This document shows, piece by piece, positions 4,248 through 17,913 of a stretch of DNA of 64,000 nt. Positions within the stretch are counted from its first letter, which is position 1, and each line of letters begins with the position of its first letter. A program made the translations under genes and the position numbers. The DNA lies in contig NW_027117338.1 of assembly GCF_038025025.1 (NCBI RefSeq), positions 3,038,001 through 3,102,000 on the forward strand, read 5' to 3'. A model generated the notes under the pieces. It searched no databases. It was not told the DNA's origin and was given only the letters and a program-made list of their open reading frames with translations. The DNA is from Phyllosticta citribraziliensis (Eukaryota).

Positions 4248-4680
4248 ATGATGCGGGAGGGAGGGTGTGGATGACTGTCTTTGCTGCTTTGCTTCTTTTC
4301 CTCCTACGAAAGACCACGCGTATTTTCATCTTTACCTCCTTCTTGCCCCTTTTGATCGCACCATGGATGCATGAATGAAATGAGTATGTATGGGATGAAC
4401 GACGGACGAGGAGAAAGGATTAGGGGGAAAGGATTCGACATTCGATGTTCTACGAACAGGGGTTAGGCGCGCAGGGCTATGCTATGGTAAAAGGTAGATC
4501 GATGTTTTATACAGTCAGTCAATTCAAACATGATGGCAAGCAGTGGATGATACATGAGGAAGTGACGGAAAGAAGAGTGAGGTTGCCGCACGTAACCATG
4601 TATCCATGCGTGCATACAGCAGACGCTGACTAACAACCGATGGACGACAGACCACCAACGCCATCTTTTAGTCCCCATCA

Positions 4681-4754: not shown

Positions 4755-6974
4755 CTACACACTCTTCCCAGCCCCTCCCCCTCCCCCACCGCCCCTCTCA
4801 ATCCTCGCCCTCACATCCCTCACCAGCGCCTTCGCATCCTCAACATCGACGCCATCCTGGCAAAGCTCATTCGCCAACTCCATGCTGCGCTGGTAATCAG
4901 CATTGAAGAAGGCCCAGCGAGCCAACCACATGCGAGCCTTGCTGGTCGTCGGCGTCACGCCGACGCCCAGGGACTCGACTGCGCCGGCGGCGTCGCCGTT
5001 ATTGTTGTTATTGTTGGCAGTGCTGGGGCCGAGGCCAGAGTAGACTGATGGAGAGAAGTTGTGAGGTGACGCGTTGCCCGACTCGGACGAGTTGTCTGCG
5101 GCGCCGCCGGGAGCGCCTGGGCGGGTGGACGGGGGGGAGGCGGCGATAGGCCCGTCTTCCTGCGCCAGACAGAGCTCCATGTAGGCGGCGCACTCGGCGC
5201 GGTCGTCGAGGCGCTCGTACAGCAGCGCGATTTGGTAGAGGACCTCGGGGTCGAGGACGCCGCTGGCAGAGCCCATGTCGTCCGCGTTGCCATCACCACC
5301 GCCGCCAAAGCTGCCGCCGCCACCTCCTCCACCCTCCGCTGCTGCGCCGTGCCCGCTGTCGTAGTAGCTGCCGGCCACCAGCGCGCGCTTGTACGCGCGG
5401 ATGCCGTTGGCGATCTTGCCCACCTCGGCAAAGCACTTGCCGACCGCCTGCCACATCTTGGGGTCGTATGGCCGCAAGCTCGCCGCGCGCTGGAAGTAAA
5501 ACAGCGCGTAGCTGTACATTTCGAGCATCTCGTACGTCTGCCCCAGGCCGTACCAGGCGCGGTAGTCCTTGCGGTTGACGTCGACGGCCCGCCTGTACGA
5601 CTCAATCGCCGCGTGCGTGTTCTTCATCTCGACGTACTCGTGGCCCATGAGCGTCCAGGCCGACAGGAAGTTGCGGTCCAGTGTCAGGGCGCGCCGGAAG
5701 TACATGACGGCTTTTTCGTGCTCGGATTTGAGCGAGTAGTAGTTGCCCACCACGCAGCAGGTTTCGGGGCGGAACTTGTCGTTGGCCGTTGCCAATTGCG
5801 CGAGGAACGCCAGCTTTGGTCGTTGTGACATGACGTAGAGGATGTTGGAGTAGTTGTCGAGGGCGTCGAGGCGGTGCGGATCCAAGATTAGGAGCGAAGA
5901 AAAGATGGATTCGGCTTCCTCAAAGTCTTTGGAATGGTAGTAGAGGAGGGCGCGCTGCGTCTTGAGAAATGCGCTGTTGGGAAAGATTTGCGAGACTTCG
6001 GTGACTTCGTCGTGCACTTGGTCGGTCGATTGGTAGAGCTCTTGGTTCGTGTAAATGTGAAAGAGAAACGTCATGAGGTTTTGTGGCAATTGCTCCGTGA
6101 TGGCATTGAGCTCCTCGACGGAGCTGATCAACGACGACAGCTCTTGCCATGCTCCCCAATTGTACGGGTACAGGTGGACGCTGCGGATCAACCACTTCTT
6201 GGCCAAGTCGTCGTTCTTACTCTTGGCCATTACGATGCCGTAGAGATACTCCAACCAGCCAGAACCCTCCTTGCCATGACCATGTCGGTCTGTAAACCAG
6301 TCCTCCAATACTCTTGATATGCCCTTGAGCTCCTTGTTTATCGTCATGCCGCCATCTGCCGGGCCGAGAATCATCTCACTCTCTTCATCCTTTCTCTTCT
6401 CCCCCGCAATGTACTTGGCGTAGAGCGCCAGGAATAACGACTTTTGGCTGAGACCGGACAGCGAGTGTGGCTCCGGCCTGACCTTTTCCGGGCTTGCATT
6501 GGCGCGTCCCTTGCCTTTGGAGCTTGTCTTTGGTCGAGTCATCTGTGGCGTTGGTGGCACGGCCAAAGAAGTCCCCGACCACATGCTGGTCGGTATGAAT
6601 ATCGCAGCGCAGCGGTCATATTCGCGACAGTCAAAGTACGTCTTGGCCAAGAGGAACTTGTGAAGCTCTTTTGCTTCCAGTCGCGCTTCTGCTGGGTCCG
6701 CGGCAAATAAATCTTTCGGTCGGCTCGGCGAGGTGCTCACGGGTGAATCTGCGTCGGTGTCTGAGGCATACGTTAGGTCGGGTAATTCGAAAGAGTTGAG
6801 AAGTTCGGCCGCCCTGGCCACATAGAGTCAGGCGCTTGGCAACATGGTAAGCGTGTGCGAGAATTAGACCTACCATTTGGCCGACTGAAAGAGGCATCTG
6901 TCGGAGCATTGGACGACGGCGTTCTGGAGCTGCGCCTGGAGCTGCGCGCTCTCGGCGTCGCTCAGGCCGCTCAT
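4755..6974 (-). CDS. CDC23: Anaphase-promoting complex subunit Cdc23/Apc8 (TPR); exons 6974-6874, 6813-4755
   Basis: Exon 1 ...CSDRCLFQSAKW joins AAELL over a 60-nt GTAGGT..CTGAC..CAG intron (6873-6814); LAKTYFDCREYDR, RPETCCVVGNYYSL, AWTLMGHEYVEMKN and DYRAWYGLGQTYE are Cdc23 hallmarks. Confidence 0.96.
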
Positions 6975-7317
6975 CTCGTATCGGGCCGGCGCAGCGCGTC
7001 TGAGGGTGGACTTGGATGAGGCGATAGGATAGGCCACGATACGGGGCGTCGGCGCAATATATAGGCTGGACAAGGTCGGCGTGTCAATTGTCGCGGACGA
7101 TGCCGCTGGTGGCGCATGGAAAGGAAGGCAGCCCACCTAGGTAAACACGGCGCAACGGAGAAACTCCGGTAGGTGGCCCTGCTATTGTCCATCAACGGCC
7201 GTCAAAAGGCGGTCTTTGGACCCTGACGCCTCACTTTCGTTCGTTCGCTCGTCGGCTCCACTCTTTCTTCCTCCTCTGTCCACTTGTCCCTCAAGTCTAC
7301 GTCCAAGGTAGCCCGCC

Positions 7318-8412
7318 ATGCCCGTCACCCTCAAGGAATTCGAGTCGGTCTTTCCTCAATTGGTCGAGGATGTTCTTGCTCACTGCAAGAGCTACAACCT
7401 CCCCGACAATGCCCAGGAATGGTACAAAAAGGTAGCATTTGGGTCGCATGAGCTCTATGATACGCCGCGCGTGAGCTGACCTCTCCAGAACCTCGAACAC
7501 AACACTGTCGGCGGAAAATGCAACCGCGGCATGTCCGTCGTTGACACTGCGTCCCTCCTCCTCGGCCGCGACCTGACCAAAGACGAGTTCTTCCTGTCCG
7601 CCACCCTTGGCTGGATGGTTGAGCTCCTCCAGGCCTTCTTCCTCGTTGCCGACGATATTATGGATGGCTCCAAGACTCGCCGCGGGAGCCCCTGCTGGTA
7701 CCTCATGCCCGAGGTCGGCATGGTTGCAATCAACGACTCCATCATGCTCGAGGCGGCCATTTACCTGCTGCTCAAGAAGTATTTCCGCCAGAACAAGTAC
7801 TACGTGGACCTGTTTGAGCTTTTCCAGGAGGTCGGCTTCCAAACCGAGCTCGGCCAGAACTGCGACTTGATCACCGCCCCCGAGGACAAGGTCAATCTGG
7901 ACAACTTTAGCCTGGAGAAGTACCACTTCATTGTCAGGTTCAAGACTGCCTTTTACAGCTTCTACCTTCCCGTTGCTCTCGCCATTTACTTCTGCGATAT
8001 CGCGACGCCGCAGAACCTGCAGCAAGCCAAGGACATTCTCATCCCCATGGGCGAGTACTTCCAGGTGCAGGACGACTACCTCGACAACTTTGCCGACCCG
8101 CAGACGCTGGGCAAGATTGGCACAGACATTCAGGACAACAAGTGCTCCTGGCTCGTCAACCAGGCGCTCAACATTTGCACGCCCGAGCAGCGTAAGGTGC
8201 TGGAGGAGAACTACGGCCGCAAGGACAAGGATTGCGAGGCTCGGGTCAAGAAGCTCTACAACGAGCTCCAGCTCGAGAAGCTGTACCAGGAGTACGAGGA
8301 AAAGATTGTCGGCGAGATCAGAGACAAGATCTCCAAGGTTGACGAGAGCGAGGGCCTAAAGAAGGCCGTGTTTGAAGAGTTTTTGAGGAAGATTTACAAG
8401 CGCAGCAAATAA
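7318..8412 (+). CDS. ERG20: Farnesyl diphosphate synthase; exons 7318-7431, 7489-8412
   Basis: 57-nt intron [69 protein letters not shown]-terminal KIYKRSK. Confidence 0.97.
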
Positions 8413-9941
8413 GCGCGTCGTCTTGGTGTGGGGGGATGAACCTTGTACCGCATGCATGTAACGGCCAAGCAAGCATTTGACAGATAACCTTAACAGTAGA
8501 GCAGATACCCGTCAAATTGAGGCGCAAGTCTTGAACATGGATTTTCCACACTCGACACCGCTGCCATGAACTCGCGTTTGCGGGGTAAACTGACTGAATG
8601 GTAGATGAACCTTCTTCCGAATTCAGAATTGGGAAGAAGATGTATAACGAACTTGGCTGTCTTGATCTCGATAGCGGACTGTTCTCCTGTGATCACGCTG
8701 TTTGCATGCCATCCAACAGCCATCACAGCTACCAGTACCTCAATCGTCGGATCCGTCTTGTCAGCCTGCTGCCTTTCGAGGAGGATGTTGTGGATTTTGA
8801 CTCTAGCAACATTCACCAGTCCACGACACCACCAGTGCCCAAAACACGCCAGCAAGTGCTGGTATGGTTTCCATCACCATCGATCGCTCCCCCTACAACA
8901 TGATATCTCAAAGCCAACCATGACAGCAACTTGCCGAAGCAGCTTCTCAAAAAGCAACGCACCACCATCCAGTCACAAGACAAGTCGACAGCACGCACCG
9001 CCAAATACAGTACCATCCAAACCAACCTCGCCAAAGTCTCTGGGCATCTAGGCGCCATCGTCTTTCTCCCCTCCCAGCATCGTCGGTGTGGTCCATGTGG
9101 TGTGGCGGTGCAAACAGCCTTCCAGGCTGAGTGCGTCGGCAACTTTGTTCAAAGAGCGGGCGGGCTGACATGTGGTCGGGGGTGGGGTCTGGCGCGTGGG
9201 CGAGTTGGACATGTGAAACTGCCACGAGCTACGGGCAGGAATCCTTGTGCGTGCGAGGGCAGGGTTCGCTGGTATAAAATGGAGTTGACGGCGCGCGAAG
9301 TGAGGGCATTGCGGTGTCTAGAGTTGAGCACAGAACTCCTGAACAAGTTGTCAAGTTCGCTAACAATTACTACTGTGGTGGTTTTGGGGTCGCTGGTTGA
9401 GGAGATGGGCTTGAGAGTTCTTCTTGAACGCAGAGGTCTGATGGGTTCCTATGCTGGAGAATATAGCTGACTGTTGATGGTGTTGAAGGATGGTGAGTTG
9501 TAATACTGCTCTACAATATTGACAGAAAGGCTTGCTTATCGAATCTGGTCACGGATACTCTCGTCTCAGATGTGTTATCCCTGGGCTGTTCACAAAAAAC
9601 TCCTTCTAGAAAGTCTCGAAGAATTGCTCGAGGCCAATTAACATACTGCCAGACACAATACTTCTAGTCAATAATGGTGGTTCCTTCCACTAGACTCCCT
9701 CGCAGCTTTACACACCACTGACGCACGACAGTGGCTTCTGGACTTGGTTGTCTTTCCACGGCACGCCGCGCACCGCCAGTCGAACTGAATCCGGAGCCAG
9801 GGCCTGAAACCAAGTGTTGAAATGAACATGCACCCAGGACCTAAAACCGAGAGCCGAGAGTTTCGTCTGCGTCGTCGAAGTGCTGGCCACAGAAGTTGTC
9901 TCGGCTTCGTTGTCGTGTTCGTTTGCGGCGGCGGTGGCAAT

Positions 9942-12468
9942 CTTTTATAGACCACGCCAGTCACCGAATCACAAGCAGACAGTCCTGGAGTGAGTCACAA
10001 GCTGCCGACGTCGCAGCTGCCTCCAGTACCCGCTGAGGAGCTCATGTGTCGAGGCCTGCTTTGATGCGTCACTGACACTTTCGAATCCAGCGGCACTAGG
10101 CCGCGGCAGGCTGGCGAGGACTTGGTATAAAAGCACCCTCTCCTCCTGGGTTTGTGAGCACTTCAGCCCCTTTGACCATCGGCGCAGAGTAACGAAGCCC
10201 AAATTCACTTGGCACTTGATACCATTCGACATGCATGGCACTCGGGTTTCGGCGGCCGCGGTCGTTTGTCGCGCAGTAGACAGTCGTCTTCACATCACCA
10301 CATCAACAGCATTACCACGAACCAAGCACCATCTTCGTCGATAACAAATGATGCTTTCCCCCATTTTCCATGAGTGGGATTGATACGAGCTCACCTGCTA
10401 CTCTTAGATTTCCCGGCCCCGACCTCACAGTCGCAGAAGGTAATTTCTCCTAACCAAAAGGCCAGAACACTACAGACCGAGTCGCACACTCCACGACTTC
10501 CGGGTTTCAGCATTGCAGGTAAGGTTGTCACTAGGAGATTGGATGCGTATTTGCGGGCTGGAATATAGGCTTTTATACTTCGCTTCGACTGGCATCACAT
10601 ACGGTTCAGATATGCTCAGTCACGAGAAAGCCTGGTTTAAGGTGCTTCTAATTCGCACGTGTCGGGGAACAAGGTTGCCTAGCGATGATGGCTACCTAGT
10701 GGTGTGGGTATAAAAACGCCTCTCTTTCCGAGATACGGCGCATCCACTGCTGTGCAGCCTCCGGCGCAGACAAACACAATCCTGAGCACCTCAAACACTT
10801 GCTCTGGTGCTTCGTGTCCCTGCAACAGAAATGTCTCATTTGGGCGCTCGCGGTCGCTTGTGTTGCTTTCCCAACGACTTAGAGCGGCAGAAGTAACATC
10901 ATCACCACAGCTGAATAACTATCTCCATCAATTTCCCATGATAGTGTCCGCCCTCATCACAGCCAATAAAATAGCCAGATATTCCTGAAACTCCTCAGGC
11001 AGTCAAGAGTGAGCAGCCGCACAAACGCTCACAAAGTACGGATTTCCTGGTGTATCTCTCCCAGCTGGTCAAGCACCGGTCGTCGTGCGCCGCAGTTGAC
11101 CGTCTCCTTGCCCGCCGGCGTTGACGCCTTTATACTCCAGGAGCTGCCACATGCGGGTGGGAAGGAGAAGTGACGCGCACGTCACGTCACGGGAGCATCC
11201 GACGGGTGACGTGGGGTGGTTACTTCTGATTCTTGTCTGCGCGTGGCAGGCGATAGATAGTTCGGTGGGTATAAAAGTTCTCGCCTTTCCTGCAGTTTAA
11301 CCGGCACTTCTGACGATGTGTCTACTGGACGCAACAACCATGCCACGCAGATCTACTTTGGCTTTCTGTGCCAAAATGCGGCTCAAGAAGTGACTTGCCG
11401 GCGGTCGCTTGTGTCCTACTCCAGAGACCTCTGCAATTGTGTCGATTCCATCATCGCTGGCGCAGAAGAGCTGTCGTCATCAACATGACATTGCGCTGTT
11501 TGCCTCTTCTACGCAATGGCGACAACGGGAGTACTGCGCGGCGAGGGGGGCCCCGCGGCGGAAGCCGGGACACAGTTTTACAGTGACCGAAACGCAGGCC
11601 AAGTACAGTCCTTGCATCTGAAGTGTGAGACAGGAAGTCTCGTCGAGGAGTTGATTGCGCTCCTAGCCCGTCGAATGGCTTCCTTTTATACTCGGTTGGT
11701 GCTACACGCCGCATGAAAGAGGCAAGTCACAAGTCACAGCCCGCGAGAGGTTGCTACTGCGGCATGTGGTTCGCGATGGCACATGACTCTCTGATTTCCA
11801 TGTGTCAAGCTGCTGCCTACCTGGCTTCGATGTATAAAAGCGCTCACGACGGCTGCAGTCTTCGTCGATCAGCAAGCGCTTCGCCAGGCACCCATGGGAG
11901 GAAAATCGCCATGGAGAAGGCAAGACTTTGGTGGTGATTCTGGGCAATCGATACTGTGCGTGGGCAGCGTTTTTTTCTCACAGCAGCGTCAGTGCGCCGT
12001 CACTTTGCACGACCCCTGTCATTGAGTATAGAAATGCTGCTCTCCATCACGCCTCAAAAATGGTGGTCGTCTTCAACACCACAAATCGAATCCGCTACCC
12101 CTTACTGCTCCGAGAAAACTTTCCCCGCGTCCGTGGACTCCGCCAAACAGAAAAGAGTAGTCCTGGGTGTTCCAGATGAACGGAACCAGGGCAAACCAAG
12201 CAGAGTGATTCGTTAGACTGAGAGCGCTCCCAGATAAATATGACTGTGGTGCTGGTTTCTGGGCCGAGCGAACGAACAGTTGAAGGTCTTACTTTTATGT
12301 CTCTGGAGTCTTCCGGTACCGGAGGGGAGGGGAGGGCATCACCAGATGTCTGCTCACAAGGCGCTCAGCGCAAGACACTCAGCGTGTGATGCTCATCGCA
12401 CATGTTCTTCTTTGCGGAGCTGGAGCCTGTGTTCCGCGGAAGGAGTGGGCAGTCGGCGTGTATATAAA
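9942..12468. promoter_or_regulatory. Degenerate tandem array of five ~560-630 bp units, each with a divergent TATA-box pair (putative bidirectional promoter array)
   Basis: Minus-strand TATA at 9942, 10570, 11127, 11683, 12292 (last degenerate, CATAAAAG); plus-strand TATA at 10126, 10709, 11270, 11833, 12461; shared position-conserved motifs between units (see findings). Confidence 0.6.
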
Positions 12469-12753
12469 TGTCCTCCTGGCAGCCCGAGAATCTCTCATTC
12501 TACATGCATCCACTTCCCGGCCACTCAGGAAAGAGTCAATCCAAAGCCTGCACTGGTGGTCGTGGGACCGTCCAAGTCGTCACTTCTCGCGTGCGGCGCT
12601 CCGTTGGCAAGCCAGGCACCATAGTCGCGGCACCAGCACCATCAGAACCCAATAGTAGAAATGTCATCCTTCATCACTTCCCAAAAGCGAGTCGAATCAT
12701 GAATATATGTATATGCTGCTACCGAAATTTGAGCAATGAAAAACACCACTCGA

Positions 12754-15700
12754 CTACACGCTTCCCCTGAACCACATCTCCCAGATACTCAACTCGCGCT
12801 GCCCGCCCTTGCCCCATCCATAACCCTCCTGCTGCAACGCGACCAGGACGCGCCAGTCAAACAACATAGTGCTGGCGACACAGTCGCCGAGGCAGTCGCG
12901 GACGAGCTGGAGCCAACGTGCGGAGGCGTCGGATGCCATGAACCCACCACCGTCACCACCACAGTTCCCCGCCGAGCAGGAAGGAGATGTCTTGCCAGTC
13001 GCATCTAGGGGGTGTTGGCAGCGTGCAGAGAGAAGAGAGGACGCAGAAGCCGACTCGACAAGGACGATTCTGCGCCAGCCCTCCCACGACGCATACGCCT
13101 GGCTCTCGCCGACGACGGGGCCGAGGGGCTCGTAGACGGTGGCGTCGCGCTGCCAGTGGCGCATATCGGTCACCAGGGCGCCGATATGGGGGCCGGACGC
13201 GTCGAGGGCCCTTAGGGCGTCGCGGAGGGCCGTGTTGTTGGTGTGGAGGTAGGGCGGTAGCAGGATTGCGGTGTGTGCGAGGGCATAGGGCAGGTTTTGG
13301 GGTGGTATTGTGCCGGTTGTGTTCGTGGTTTTGGGGTTGGGGCGGGATGATGATGACGATGATGATATGGGTGTGGTTATGGTGCATGATATGTTGCCAG
13401 TGCCCCATTTTGGGATCTTGCGGGGGACCATGTCGACATCGAAGTCGTCGACGGCAGCGCGTTTCGACTTGGATCGCGTCAGCGAGAGATCAGGCGAGCT
13501 AGACGGTAGTTCCAGGGGTCGCAGTGGCTTCTTCGTGCTTGATCGACCCGAGGTGCCCTTAGCCTTTGTCACTGTTGGCGTTTCTGTAGGAAATGGCGGC
13601 GCCGCGTTTTCTTTTCTTGAAGAGGGGCGCGGTGTCGGCGGGACGATTTCGACGTAGGCCGGTTGCCGTGCTGTTGCCTTTGGAGTTAAAGGAGCCATGA
13701 CGGACTGGAAGCCTTTCCTGGCAGATGCTGCATCATCTGGAGTCGATTTTGGCGTGGGTAAAGAGTTGCCACGACTTGGAGGCTGGGCTGGTTTAGGACT
13801 GATAACAGGCTGATTAACAGACTCTGCTGCTGTCATTGAGAGAGCCTCTTGCTTTGAAGCAGCACTGCCACTTGCCAACTCCTGTCGCTGTGCACCACGT
13901 GCATGGCTCTGGTTAGCACCTTGTGCTAGAAAGGTCTTTAGAGGCTTGAGGGAAGAACGCTGCTCATCTCCCTTTGTTGCAGAACCACTCTTAGGGACAG
14001 GAGTATCAAGAGTTCTGGGTAGCTGCCCCACAGGCTTGTCTTCGTTCGTTGAACTCTGGACGTGTCCAAGATTCACACTCGCAGGCAGTCTCGCGACTGG
14101 TTCTGTTCCCTGAGGATCTGGCAAATTTGACAGCTGTAGTTGAACGGTCGAGGAATTTGGATGTTGGACGCGTCCTGCAACTCCGTCCATATTCAGGGCC
14201 CGCCTTTTAGGTGGTGAAATCTCTACGCGAGGCCACTGGACGACCTGTGAGGACCTCGGGCTCAGAATTGTCTGCGTATGTGCTGTAAGCTGAGTTGTAG
14301 TAGCTTCTCTTCCAAGGACTTCGTTGGAAATCGGATGCATGACGCCAAAAGTGGCCGGATTTGGGCATGGCTCAGGGGAACGTTGTAGCGGCGCCTTTGA
14401 AGGACCAGAAATCTTGCCCGCAGGTTGGACAGGTTGTATCTGAGCAACAGCTCCAGGAGTGGGGCTTCCAGCCTCATTTGCCAGGTGAATAGCACGCCGA
14501 ACGGCTGAAGCAGGGCTCTCAGTGGTCGCCGACCGTGGAGTAGTGGATCTTTGGCGCTCCTCCGCCCTCTTCATCTTGCCATACAGCTTCTCAACAAGTC
14601 GCCTGGCCTCTTGAGATTCTCCCTCTGCAGGTGCATTCCTGGCTTCATCTGCCATTCGAGCCAGGCCAGAAACAGTGATGCAGTCTTCCCACGAGCGGTC
14701 ATTGTGGATCTTGAGAACGCGGGGGTGTCGCAGCATCCAAAAGTCTTCATTCGCTGGCTTCTCGAAAGCACTGCCCAAGATTTCAACGACAAAAGGGTTT
14801 CGAAAGAGAACATCAGGAGATGAGTTGCGTCCAATTTGAATATCAAACTCGTCGATGCCGTCCGGGTCGTACTCTGTCTCCCGGAACTGCCCGTGCTGAT
14901 TCAGAAATTTGAGGTCTGGAGGTGGAATGCACTGGTCTTGTTTGATGATGGCCACAATCTTGAACTTGGGTCTCGACCGATATCTGGCCTGCTCGTCATC
15001 CATCAGGCAGCCAAGATGAAAATTGGTCCAGCGGAGGCGTTGCTGGCCCGCCTTCTGTGCTTGTTGTACTTCGTAGCTGGCCCCGATTACAGCAAAATCG
15101 GCAACATCTCTCTCGCCGCCCAAGTCAGTCATGTAATCCCTCTTGAGCTTGATGAAGCCCCTATAGCCGCTCCGGGGTTCTCCTGCGGCGAGTGAAAAAT
15201 AGGATGCGTTGGGCTTGAGGACGAGCCCCTCACAGCGCTGTACCAGAGCAGCTGTGAATTGGACTACAAGGCTTTTCTGTGCCTGCTTAGTGGCAAAGTC
15301 AAGGAGCTTCCATTCGACAGTCGAGGCTCGGCCTGGGATTTTGGTCAAGAGGCTCGAGAGGCGCTTCCTTCGTTGTTCGTGTGGTTTGGTCATAGTAAGC
15401 TCGTCGTCAACCATGAGAACGTCGAAGAATGCAATCATGAGGTGTTCGTGTGGGTGCGGCTGCGAGTCCTTGTCGGTGCCAATGAAGGATCCAGCTCTGC
15501 CGACAAACTTCCTGACCTTTTCGAAGCCGAGCACCTTTTGCTCGAGGTCACTCCAGACCACCATTTCACCGAGGAGGATGCATTGGTCTTGGATTTTGCA
15601 GTCTTCCTGCCCAATCCTCAGGCATTGGCGGAGAATCTTGTGCAGCTCTCTCCTGTCCTGTGTGGAATCTCTGCCGTTCTTTGAGAAGATTTTGATGCAA

Positions 15701-16626
15701 TCCCGGCCCTTGGCCAAGTCGATGTGAATCTCAACATACTCACCATCGTACTTTCTTTCTATGATCCACTGCCCGTGCGCGACTAGATCGAGACAGTTCT
15801 TGAACGACCGAGCCTTGATCCAATGTGGTCGGCCAACTTTGACGCCAATTTGTGGTCGGACAATGTGACCTTCGGCTTCTTCCAAAAAGACTTGGCGGGA
15901 CTGAGGGTCGGGGTTCGCAGGAAACTTATTGAGGGGTCCACGCAACAGATTGGCGGCGAAAGTGAGGTCGTTGTTGAATTTGAGCAAAAGTGGCAGCAAA
16001 AAGTGGTATCCTTCGAGCAAGAGCTTTTCAATATATCCTGAATCGGCTTGAAGCAGCCCCATGCTCTTGAGAATCATTCTGACGAACCATTTCTTCTCTC
16101 GGGAATGCATCTGTCGCATTGTGGGTTTCAAGATTTGGTCGGGGATTGCAGCCGTCACCCTCTTCATGACTTCTGGTCCCGAGAAGCGGCACCTGGCTGC
16201 CAACTGGGTGAGTGCGGCGTCTACCTCTTCGACGGTCAGCGGTGCTCCCACTGGAAGTGGACAACAGTCGAAATCCCGTTCAATCCGTTCGACGCACTCT
16301 CCAAGATCACCACCGCCTCTTTCTCGCCATCTGCCCAGCTCTCGGTACTTTGCTTCGCCTAGCACGAGGCATCGTCCGACAATTTTCTCGAGCAATTTCG
16401 ACTGAATGCCGTAGACGCGATCGGTCCGCCTATCAGGCAAGAGAGAAGAGAGAACGGCAAGGCGATCGCTATCGTGGTCCAAGGCCTTTCGGTGCGTGCG
16501 AAACCAGAGCTGGATAGTTTGGCGCAACTTTTTGTCTTTTTGTGCTGGAAGATATGGTGGATCCCTCGATATTACTTGTTCCAGGTTCTGAAAAAGTTCA
16601 CAGATGGCTGTGAACTTGAGAGGCAT
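12754..16626 (-). CDS. Fungal-type ATP-dependent DNA ligase-like protein (1290 aa, intronless)
   Basis: N-terminal DNA-binding domain (LLPDRRTDRVYGI, GDLG); motif I ERKYDGE, III LLGEMVVW, IIIa FFDVL, IV EGLVLK, V IKLKRDY, OB-fold LRHPR; long low-complexity C-terminal tail. Confidence 0.88.
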   Translation of the reverse strand: MPLKFTAICELFQNLEQVISRDPPYLPAQKDKKLRQTIQLWFRTHRKALDHDSDRLAVLSSLLPDRRTDRVYGIQSKLLEKIVGRCLVLGEAKYRELGRWRERGGGDLGECVERIERDFDCCPLPVGAPLTVEEVDAALTQLAARCRFSGPEVMKRVTAAIPDQILKPTMRQMHSREKKWFVRMILKSMGLLQADSGYIEKLLLEGYHFLLPLLLKFNNDLTFAANLLRGPLNKFPANPDPQSRQVFLEEAEGHIVRPQIGVKVGRPHWIKARSFKNCLDLVAHGQWIIERKYDGEYVEIHIDLAKGRDCIKIFSKNGRDSTQDRRELHKILRQCLRIGQEDCKIQDQCILLGEMVVWSDLEQKVLGFEKVRKFVGRAGSFIGTDKDSQPHPHEHLMIAFFDVLMVDDELTMTKPHEQRRKRLSSLLTKIPGRASTVEWKLLDFATKQAQKSLVVQFTAALVQRCEGLVLKPNASYFSLAAGEPRSGYRGFIKLKRDYMTDLGGERDVADFAVIGASYEVQQAQKAGQQRLRWTNFHLGCLMDDEQARYRSRPKFKIVAIIKQDQCIPPPDLKFLNQHGQFRETEYDPDGIDEFDIQIGRNSSPDVLFRNPFVVEILGSAFEKPANEDFWMLRHPRVLKIHNDRSWEDCITVSGLARMADEARNAPAEGESQEARRLVEKLYGKMKRAEERQRSTTPRSATTESPASAVRRAIHLANEAGSPTPGAVAQIQPVQPAGKISGPSKAPLQRSPEPCPNPATFGVMHPISNEVLGREATTTQLTAHTQTILSPRSSQVVQWPRVEISPPKRRALNMDGVAGRVQHPNSSTVQLQLSNLPDPQGTEPVARLPASVNLGHVQSSTNEDKPVGQLPRTLDTPVPKSGSATKGDEQRSSLKPLKTFLAQGANQSHARGAQRQELASGSAASKQEALSMTAAESVNQPVISPKPAQPPSRGNSLPTPKSTPDDAASARKGFQSVMAPLTPKATARQPAYVEIVPPTPRPSSRKENAAPPFPTETPTVTKAKGTSGRSSTKKPLRPLELPSSSPDLSLTRSKSKRAAVDDFDVDMVPRKIPKWGTGNISCTITTPISSSSSSSRPNPKTTNTTGTIPPQNLPYALAHTAILLPPYLHTNNTALRDALRALDASGPHIGALVTDMRHWQRDATVYEPLGPVVGESQAYASWEGWRRIVLVESASASSLLSARCQHPLDATGKTSPSCSAGNCGGDGGGFMASDASARWLQLVRDCLGDCVASTMLFDWRVLVALQQEGYGWGKGGQRELSIWEMWFRGSV

Positions 16627-17913
16627 GGTGGTGGTATATTAGGCGGCCAATGGGCATCCAAGGAAACAGGCTGTCGCTGTAGGCCAAAAGCTGGGTATCT
16701 CAATGAAAAAAAAAGACTAAGGGGTATCATAATGGCATAGAAAAGGTAGAAAAGATGCAGAGTGCCCTCACTGGTGCTGGGACGAGGTCGTCACCATGAA
16801 AGGCACAAGGCTGCGGGGTGGTGAGGAGGAGTGGAGTGGGGAGAGTGGGTGAGACGCGAAACAAAGAGCGCCGACGCGTCGAGCGAGCGTAGTCACATGG
16901 GCATCCCAAAACAGCCTAGCTCGAGGGTACGCAAAGTGAAGAGGAAATCGTCAACCACGTGGAGCTGCAGTGACGGACCGTCAGTGATGGTCGATCGGCC
17001 ATTTGCCTTGGCCGCTGATCCGTCCTTGAGGCACATCATCTCCTCTCGTCGCGTCGCGTCTCATCTCCCTCGCTCTCCAGCCCCTGCATCTTCGACTTCA
17101 CCCACGCTCGTCTCCCGGTCATCACCACTGCTGCAGCCGTGACCCTTTCTTTTCTTGTCCGGACCATTCCTTGGCCACCTGCCGCAACCCGTCCGATGGC
17201 CGTTTTCAACAACCAATGGCCCGAGACAGCGCATCAGCTTCAATTCCCAGGGTCCAGCCAAATGCCAACTTCAAACACGCTCACCGGCAAGCGGAAACTT
17301 GCATATCCGAAAGTCTTGGCTGCCGATTGGACGCAAAAAAGAAATGATAATAAAAAACAACCAAAGAGCATGGATCACCGACGAGAGGACCGGGAGCTGG
17401 CGTGCGTGCTGCCGTCCATGCCCAGACACGCGCCTTTCCTTGTGAATGTGTATAGCCCGCGTGCGGTAAGGGTGTGGGCTCTTTCGGCATCGGAGGCGGC
17501 CTTCTTGACAAAGCTCTCGGCATAATCCACCATGTAGCGCGCGACGGCTTATGAAGCGGCGGCGGCGCCGCTGCTCGCATCTGGCGGTCCCTTCCTTATT
17601 TTTAGTCGCCCAACCTGCTGTCTGTCCGTCACCAGCAGCAGCTTCAACGTCAGCCACAACCTTTACCGGCCATTCAGCTGCCATCCATCGCGACAGCACG
17701 GCGCCGCGTACGCAATCCCGAGTCCAGGCCTTGTAGACCGCCAGCCAGCCCACGCGAACCCGAGTCCAACCAGCGATTGAGGACCCAGTCGCCGTACCCG
17801 AATTCGCATCCCTTTGGCACTCCAGCCATATACAACGTCAGCGCCGCCCTCGTCCATCAATCCGCCGAACAGAGCACAGCATACGCGAATAGCTCCACCC
17901 CACCACGTCCACC

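Follow-up and report, generated by a model that had tools for sequence, protein, structure and literature searches.

A transcribed, lineage-specific array of TATA promoter modules between the facing 3' ends of ERG20 and a DNA ligase gene in Phyllosticta citribraziliensis

Why should a gap between two gene tails, which needs no promoter, contain a periodic series of opposed TATA boxes? The question is raised by a 64-kb stretch of the Phyllosticta citribraziliensis genome (contig NW_027117338.1, positions 3,038,001 to 3,102,000), referred to below as the window, with all coordinates counted from its first letter. The boxes are located between ERG20, coding for farnesyl-diphosphate synthase, and an ATP-dependent DNA ligase gene. 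These two genes are convergent, their 3' ends facing each other, and the array therefore occupies a gap where no promoter is required. A preliminary description of this DNA had proposed that the boxes form bidirectional promoters of convergent non-coding RNAs. We conclude that the array is real, lineage-specific and transcribed, its TATA promoter modules giving rise to short non-coding RNAs. The locus probably represents a few clustered transcription units that do not code for protein.

The array includes 11 boxes: five inverted pairs and one unpaired plus-strand box. Read on the plus strand, the minus-strand boxes are CTTTTATA at 9942, 10570 and 11683, CCTTTATA at 11127 and the degenerate CTTTTATG at 12292. 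The plus-strand boxes are TATAAAAG at 10126, 11270 and 11833, TATAAAAA at 10709 and TATATAAA at 12461, with the extra box at 9273. Distances within the pairs are 177, 132, 136, 143 and 162 bp, and the plus-to-plus periods are 583, 561, 563 and 628 bp. Opposed core-promoter boxes are thus found within about 200 bp of each other in all five pairs (132-177 bp), one of the ten paired boxes (12292) being degenerate. All box positions, pair distances and periods given in the preliminary description were reproduced when the sequence was read again.

Boxes on both strands share the consensus GTATAAAAG. The earlier impression that such boxes are scarce elsewhere is supported both by direct counts and by dinucleotide shuffles of the window. 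The array holds all five TATAAAA occurrences on the plus strand of the window and three of the four on the minus strand (the remaining one is at 4505); for TATAWAW, its share is 7 of 7 on the plus strand and 3 of 6 on the minus strand. With one mismatch or none, GTATAAAAG is found 13 times in the window vs 3.58 ± 1.91 expected, and none of 100 shuffles reached 13. Nine of the 13 matches and all five exact copies are concentrated within 9272-11840, which makes up 4% of the window. The sole other box in the window close to the consensus and with an intact TATAAAA core is GTATAAAAC at 4504-4512 on the minus strand, just past the 3' end of the Cdc23 gene; it is presumably part of the next gene leftward. 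A weak TATA-like sequence, TGTATAAC, is located at about 8643, just after the ERG20 3' end and 63 nt upstream of an adapter-marked RNA contig start at 8706. This site may be a further degenerate unit left of the array.

Together with the motifs found next to them, the boxes delimit six modules:

9094..9280, plus strand: module 0, with CATGTG at 9094, 9169 and 9210 and the plus box GTATAAAAT at 9272-9280; it has no inverted partner box
9942..10133, both strands: module 1, with a minus box at 9942-9950, TCACAAG at 9969 and 9995, CATGTG at 10043 and the plus box GTATAAAAG at 10125-10133
10570..10716, both strands: module 2, with the minus box GTATAAAAG at 10570-10578, TCACGAG at 10620, CACGTG at 10656 and the plus box GTATAAAAA at 10708-10716
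11127..11277, both strands: module 3, with the minus box GTATAAAGG at 11127-11135, CACATG at 11148, a GTGACG/ACGTCAC cluster at 11170-11211 and the plus box GTATAAAAG at 11269-11277
11683..11840, both strands: module 4, with the minus box GTATAAAAG at 11683-11691, TCACAAG at 11727, CAYRTG at 11763, 11780 and 11799 and the plus box GTATAAAAG at 11832-11840
12292..12468, both strands: module 5 (degenerate), with the minus box ACATAAAAG at 12292-12300, TCACAAG at 12354, CACATG at 12399 and the plus box GTATATAAA at 12460-12468

The motifs between the boxes are not scattered over the interval. All ten CAYRTG sites found in 8400-13000 are located 34-179 bp upstream of a plus box, with at least one site for each of the six plus boxes, and none of the ten is in a spacer. 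CAYRTG density is 9.4 per kb between boxes vs 0.88 per kb in the window; for GTCAC the corresponding values are 13.4 and 1.56 per kb. Of the five stretches that separate paired boxes, four contain TCACRAG, whose orientation does not vary, and a pyrimidine-rich tract (fraction 0.60-0.70 in 30 nt) follows five of the six plus boxes. The proximity of ERG20 made a link to SREBP worth considering, and it was rejected: TCACRAG does not match the usual SREBP site.

The array consists of head-to-tail copies, six units of about 560-850 bp spanning 9.1-12.5 kb, and represents a tandem repeat with a length of about 520-640 bp in an advanced state of decay. The periodicity does not reside in the boxes alone: with the boxes masked, shared 6- to 8-mers still show peaks at offsets of 480-640 bp (z 3.3-8.5 against mononucleotide shuffles, except for the 560-599 bin at k=8 with z 2.8), and a second pile-up appears near three periods. 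Short families of direct repeats, e.g., GCGGTCGCTTGTGT, are spaced by 551-627 bp. Divergence between the copies is too high for Tandem Repeats Finder, which detected no such array in the interval, and aligning the units with one another gives little more than noise. The box 9-mers stand out against this background. Their pairwise identity is 0.83-0.88 (mean 0.85), while the 30-nt flanks are at the level of random sequence (0.27-0.31), so the boxes are indeed the best kept part of decayed units, as had been claimed. As judged from the sequence, conservation is confined to the promoter parts (boxes, CAYRTG and TCACRAG/GTCAC), and the rest of the repeat, including the spacers of about 420-450 bp between modules, is saturated with change.

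The only kept element inside the spacers is the 14-mer GCGGTCGCTTGTGT. It is exactly the same in units 2 and 3 (10850-10863 and 11401-11414) and has a near copy in unit 1 (10258-10269). Its copies are located about 60-80 nt past the inferred plus-strand start and are followed, about 45 nt further on, by a block resembling CATCATCACCAC; the reading frame of the 14-mer differs between units.

Two simple origins of the decayed repeat were rejected. Repeat-induced point mutation (RIP) is indicated by TpA/ApT above 0.89 and (CpA+TpG)/(ApC+GpT) below 1.03. The interval lacks this signature: its indices of 0.64-0.67 and 1.24-1.25 do not differ from those of the remaining window, at a GC content of 53-54%, and a RIP-mutated repeat relic was rejected. 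The array is not a copy of another promoter or gene of the window either, the best similarity being one 25-nt match with an E value of 0.82.

Is the array transcribed? Two public runs from two studies, X1 and X2, contain this stretch; among the runs found, none was registered plainly as RNA. Both are labelled 'RNA?' and were taken as RNA because their contigs skip introns of the neighbouring genes, namely the ERG20 intron 7429..7487 (57 nt, GT..AG) and the Cdc23 intron 6760..6874 (113 nt). The contigs of both runs cover the interval, in agreement with the transcription suggested earlier:

8706..9895 (X1) and 9553-9903 (X2), strand unassigned: RNA contig over unit 0, from contig layout
10091..10784 (X1) and 10178-10695 (X2), strand unassigned, plus likely from 10178: RNA contig over unit 1 and module 2, from contig layout
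10789..11089, plus strand inferred from adapter type: X1 contig over unit 2, with an adapter-marked start and an end inferred from bin depths
11113..11641, minus strand inferred from adapter orientation: discrete RNA contig of 529 nt, adapter-tipped on both sides, spanning unit 3 and module 3
11883..12753 (X1 contig 11883-17000+) and 12013-12429 (X2), strand unassigned: RNA cover over unit 4 into the ligase gene, from contig layout

The array contigs are 0.35-1.2 kb long. No joint was reported inside the array, so its RNAs look unspliced. The X1 contig 11883-17000+ links the last unit to the ligase gene, so transcripts of the array may extend over the 3' end of that gene.

Some of the contig ends fall at a similar distance from a box. 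The stretch 9000-12760 has 14 ends of contigs or starts marked by an adapter, and five of them are located 46-54 nt downstream of a box in matching orientation; random placement gives a mean of 0.64 such ends for a 30-60-nt window (P = 3e-4). For the minus box 9942 these are the ends at 9895 (X1, 54 nt) and 9903 (X2, 46 nt), found in two studies. An X2 contig starts at 10178, 52 nt from the plus box 10126, while the contig end at 11641 and the contig start at 11883 are 49 and 50 nt away from the minus box 11683 and the plus box 11833, respectively. At module 2, an adapter-marked contig start (10789) follows the plus box by 80 nt, and at module 5 the X2 contig 12013-12429 stops 32 nt left of TATATA.

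Contig ends on both sides hint at divergent firing of modules 1 and 4. The bidirectional firing proposed earlier for every pair is thus hinted at for pairs 1 and 4, whereas at pairs 2 and 3 the contigs 10091-10784 and 11113-11641 run straight through. The stretches left uncovered, as worked out from bin depths, are 9896-10090 and 11642-11882 in X1 and 9904-10177, 11765-12012 and 12430-12748 in X2; they fall over modules 1 and 4, and missing cover was not counted as evidence. Judging by adapter orientation, a plus-strand RNA from 10789 and a minus-strand RNA from 11641 to 11113 appear to converge across two units and to abut about 23 nt apart, without overlap. In the region 11113-11135, the minus-strand RNA would end about 14 nt after reading through the minus box in module 3 as UAUAAAG. 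Poly(A)-signal-like hexamers in the interval are almost exclusively the TATAAA boxes, with one AATAAA at 10965, and a TATA box may also serve as a poly(A)-type signal for RNA coming in on its own strand.

On its left the array has Cdc23 (minus strand) and ERG20 (plus strand) and on its right the ligase gene (minus strand), all three recognised by Pfam:

7179..8501, plus strand: ERG20 (farnesyl-diphosphate synthase) mRNA, stop codon at 8410-8412, Pfam PF00348 with E 3e-72
12754..16626, minus strand: open reading frame (ORF) of the ATP-dependent DNA ligase, 1290 aa, Pfam PF01068 and PF04675, convergent with ERG20

ERG20 is covered by the RNA contigs 7179-8392 (X1) and 7188-8501 (X2), and the gap between ERG20 and the ligase gene is 4,341 bp, 3' end to 3' end. 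The Pfam domains of the ligase end at residue 477, and relatives in metagenome loci match approximately the first 765 residues only; the C-terminal half is long, of low complexity and lineage-specific. On the other side, the head-to-head pair Cdc23/APC8 (minus) and ERG20 (plus), 4755-8412, is kept in many of 80 fungal metagenome loci (L008, L014, L025, L032 and others). Conservation of this gene order is widespread, whereas the right side of ERG20 varies.

These 80 metagenome ERG20 loci, with ERG20 amino-acid identity of 79% or less, were fetched for comparison. None of the 46 scanned (those of 4 kb or more) has the box array, and no DNA similarity to the array was found among the metagenome loci. 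The preliminary description had pointed to the ERG20-ligase interval of related species as informative; the convergent ERG20/ligase arrangement was found in just one locus, the distant relative L039, where the gap is about 330 bp. Compared with the 4,341 bp here, and with the array missing from the loci scanned, this gap indicates that the array is an addition in this lineage.

Coding capacity of the array was assessed next to that of its neighbours. GC contrast between codon positions averages 0.09 (max 0.21) in the array, i.e., no codon periodicity is seen, vs 0.57 in ERG20, 0.37 in Cdc23 and 0.23 in the ligase gene. Nine proteins were scanned with Pfam, six from array ORFs and three from the flanking genes, and none of the six array ORFs was matched. 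Six-frame peptides of different units have no significant colinear similarity (best E 0.001, not colinear). As far as Pfam, protein look-up and codon periodicity can tell, the interval contains no gene, as had been stated.

On balance, we lean towards an old, lineage-specific tandem TATA/E-box module, five of its six copies carrying an inverted box, that still makes convergent unspliced non-coding RNAs and is under selection for the start of transcription. An RNA polymerase II promoter module would have been duplicated between the ERG20 and ligase 3' ends long ago and in this lineage only. Its order is an inverted GTATAAAAG box (five of six units), TCACRAG/GTCAC, one to three CAYRTG E-box-like motifs, a forward GTATAAAAG box and a pyrimidine-rich tract, while the spacers of about 420-450 bp would have drifted to random. 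The contig ends hint at RNA starts on both strands, about 50 nt past the boxes, and further that modules 1 and 4 fire divergently and that some RNAs read through modules 2 and 3. RNAs of adjacent modules would then run towards each other. Selection may act on starting transcription, or on binding TBP and an E-box factor, rather than on RNA sequence. If so, the function, if any, is the act of transcription, and convergent or antisense interference, sense-antisense RNA pairing or control of the 3' ends of both flanking genes are possible roles. A structured RNA or a protein product would fit less well.

Several observations weigh against this explanation. Contigs cannot show the start, end, strand or level of an RNA, which makes the connection of boxes with starts a statistical one; of the 14 contig ends, nine are away from any box, and the distance of 46-54 nt was chosen after seeing the data, the wider 30-60-nt window being taken from the literature. 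In X1, the left end of the contig 10091-10784 is already 35 nt upstream of the plus box 10126, and both unit 1 contigs (10091-10784 and 10178-10695) pass through the minus box 10570, just as the contig 11113-11641 spans all of module 3. Boxes 9273 (plus), 10570 (minus), 11127 (minus), 11270 (plus) and 12292 (minus) have no direct evidence of use. Strand calls depend on adapter types at contig ends, for which the control is only two flanking-gene ends (7098 and 8392), both fitting a library with the second read sense. Moreover, the end at 8392 of the X1 ERG20 contig is inside the coding region, 20 nt before the stop codon, while X2 reaches 8501; an adapter at a contig end is thus no guarantee of a true RNA end. 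The folding z-scores are -2.45 for the 11113-11641 RNA and +1.28 for the 10091-10784 RNA, so there is no strong RNA structure. Selection is deduced from comparing units within the array only.

The same data can be read in other ways. The boxes could be relic promoters of a dead tandem family of a small TATA-driven gene in five or six copies, now firing as noise with no present function; the decay of the tandem repeat, the lack of any remaining coding signal and the absence of the array from the single syntenic relative found all suit such an origin. We nevertheless regard it as unlikely, since neutral decay that brought the flanks to 27-31% identity should also have erased the boxes. The survival of nine boxes with at most one mismatch to the 9-mer and two degenerate ones, together with oriented TCACRAG and CAYRTG motifs, is not expected under neutrality. 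Alternatively, the array may be a cluster of genes for fast-evolving micro-proteins, with a short ORF of 21-53 codons near each RNA 5' end. Plus-strand start codons are available at 10231, 10831 and 11894 and minus-strand ones at 11617 and 9829, an AUG is present 11-74 nt from every inferred start, and promoters with a TATA box and a pyrimidine tract are the type used by protein-coding genes. However, these ORFs are unrelated to one another, GC at the third codon position is not raised (0.43-0.67 vs 0.84 in ERG20 and 0.78 in Cdc23), the 14-mer GCGGTCGCTTGTGT occurs in different frames in units 1 and 2, and none of ten of the longest array ORFs was found by exact look-up in the protein collection, which makes micro-proteins quite improbable. 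Lipopeptide (a-factor-like) pheromone precursors, with about 21-26 codons ending in Cys-aliphatic-aliphatic-X-stop, were considered as a special case. No CaaX-ending ORF was found in the array (the nearest is a 24-codon ORF at 10290-10364 on the minus strand, ending DVVM and lacking Cys), and an array of pheromone genes is thus unsupported. Histone-type gene pairs have no ORFs to support them.

If the products are RNAs, they might be structured ones (small nucleolar, small nuclear, telomerase RNA or similar), each gene with its own TATA promoter. The RNAs are indeed discrete, unspliced and 0.35-0.7 kb long, and the contig 11113-11641 is directly flanked by adapters, without any A-run, its folding being slightly better than that of shuffles. 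We consider this reading very improbable: the other RNA folded does worse than shuffles, conservation within the units is lowest in the RNA bodies, and Rfam gave no match at E up to 1 across 8000-14000. No C box/D box pair with a terminal stem was found in the array, and after the empty Rfam and C/D searches a small nucleolar RNA cluster was rejected; the interval has neither a telomere template nor a clear Sm site, and telomerase or Sm-class RNA was rejected as well. The boxes may also be no promoters at all, being either 3'-end (poly(A)) signals or the ends of small transposon-like insertions, with terminal inverted repeats of 9 bp. Modules and spacers alike are bracketed by GTATAAAAG and its reverse complement, the inferred minus-strand RNA stops shortly past a box, and TATAAA is nearly the sole poly(A)-like hexamer of the interval. 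Yet the poly(A) reading fits one RNA end only, while five contig ends lie downstream of boxes at promoter-like spacing. As to transposon ends, complementarity stops at 9 bp (flank identity 0.27-0.29), no target-site duplication was seen and the even spacing suits tandem duplication, not repeated insertion. A miniature inverted-repeat transposable element with 9-bp terminal repeats was rejected on the same ground of complementarity, and boxes of either non-promoter kind seem hardly credible.

Within the promoter explanation that we favour, a more far-reaching version can be formulated. Six TATA/E-box modules, five of them two-faced, would have been kept by selection and would fire short RNAs at each other across freely drifting spacers. 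Through collisions or pairing, these RNAs would contribute to silencing by small RNAs or chromatin, or would govern how ERG20 and the ligase gene are expressed and how their 3' ends behave. This version is speculative and, in our opinion, rather doubtful; if true, it would make the array a kind of regulatory locus not described in fungi.

Beyond what the preliminary description contained, the array is a true decayed tandem repeat with conserved motifs between its boxes and a position between convergent 3' ends. The literature searched contained no account of periodically arranged TATA-box pairs in fungi. The ingredients are known (TATA core promoter, bidirectional promoter, convergent non-coding transcription, tandem repeat), but they are combined in an unusual way: nothing in the repeat except its promoters is conserved, and these are located where two genes end. 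Non-coding transcription in fungi is mostly regarded as a spill-over of promoters belonging to genes, whereas this locus has six repeats of consensus TATA promoters and no genes for them, and within the array they alone have resisted decay. The locus therefore offers a natural test of whether the act of transcription, not the RNA product, can be a selected trait. It is small, sharply bounded and placed between two easily assayed genes, the sterol-pathway ERG20 and a DNA ligase gene. Even if its transcription is noise, it would mean that dead tandem gene arrays can leave active promoters, which is relevant for annotation of long non-coding RNAs.

Several known systems share some of these features. 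Pervasive bidirectional promoters of budding yeast are nucleosome-free, fire both ways and yield short unstable non-coding RNAs (CUTs, cryptic unstable transcripts, and SUTs, stable unannotated transcripts). Those RNAs are a by-product of gene promoters and mostly have no TATA box of their own, whereas the array has consensus boxes facing both ways and no gene. In the intergenic spacers of animal ribosomal DNA, tandem promoter copies making non-coding RNA are kept while the spacer drifts. Those promoters are served by RNA polymerase I and stand beside rRNA genes, in contrast to the array, which is of the TATA type (polymerase II-like), bidirectional and unlinked to ribosomal DNA. Divergent histone genes of Aspergillus reportedly share a short promoter which fires both ways and is said to have two opposed TATA boxes; it is located between two conserved coding genes, unlike the array, which has no coding sequence on either side.

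Neurospora loci of Dicer-independent small interfering RNAs (disiRNAs) show convergent transcription and dynamic DNA methylation, lie in gene-rich regions and give rise to small RNAs of about 22 nt that do not depend on Dicer (PMC3764098). The preliminary description had suggested them as a model, with each spacer possibly yielding overlapping sense and antisense RNA; its reading is partly supported, promoter use and two divergent pairs being hinted at. The array resembles these loci in apparent polymerase II transcription from both strands, converging in a gene-rich, non-repetitive part of a Sordariomycete-like genome. A periodic promoter array is not mentioned in the abstract on the Neurospora loci (PMC3764098).

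Single modules match the core promoters of Aspergillus nidulans, where, according to a survey of transcription start sites, the TATA box is located about 30-45 nt upstream of the start, the region from -50 to -1 is pyrimidine-rich and CACGTG peaks near -70 (PMC4046813). The array is similar in having an apparently fixed distance from TATA box to start, with 46-54 nt between the first T of the box and the contig ends, a pyrimidine-rich sense strand after the box and a CACGTG-type motif further upstream. Unlike the A. nidulans promoters, it drives no recognisable gene and arranges its boxes in inverted pairs, repeated six times with a period of about 560-630 bp between convergent 3' ends.

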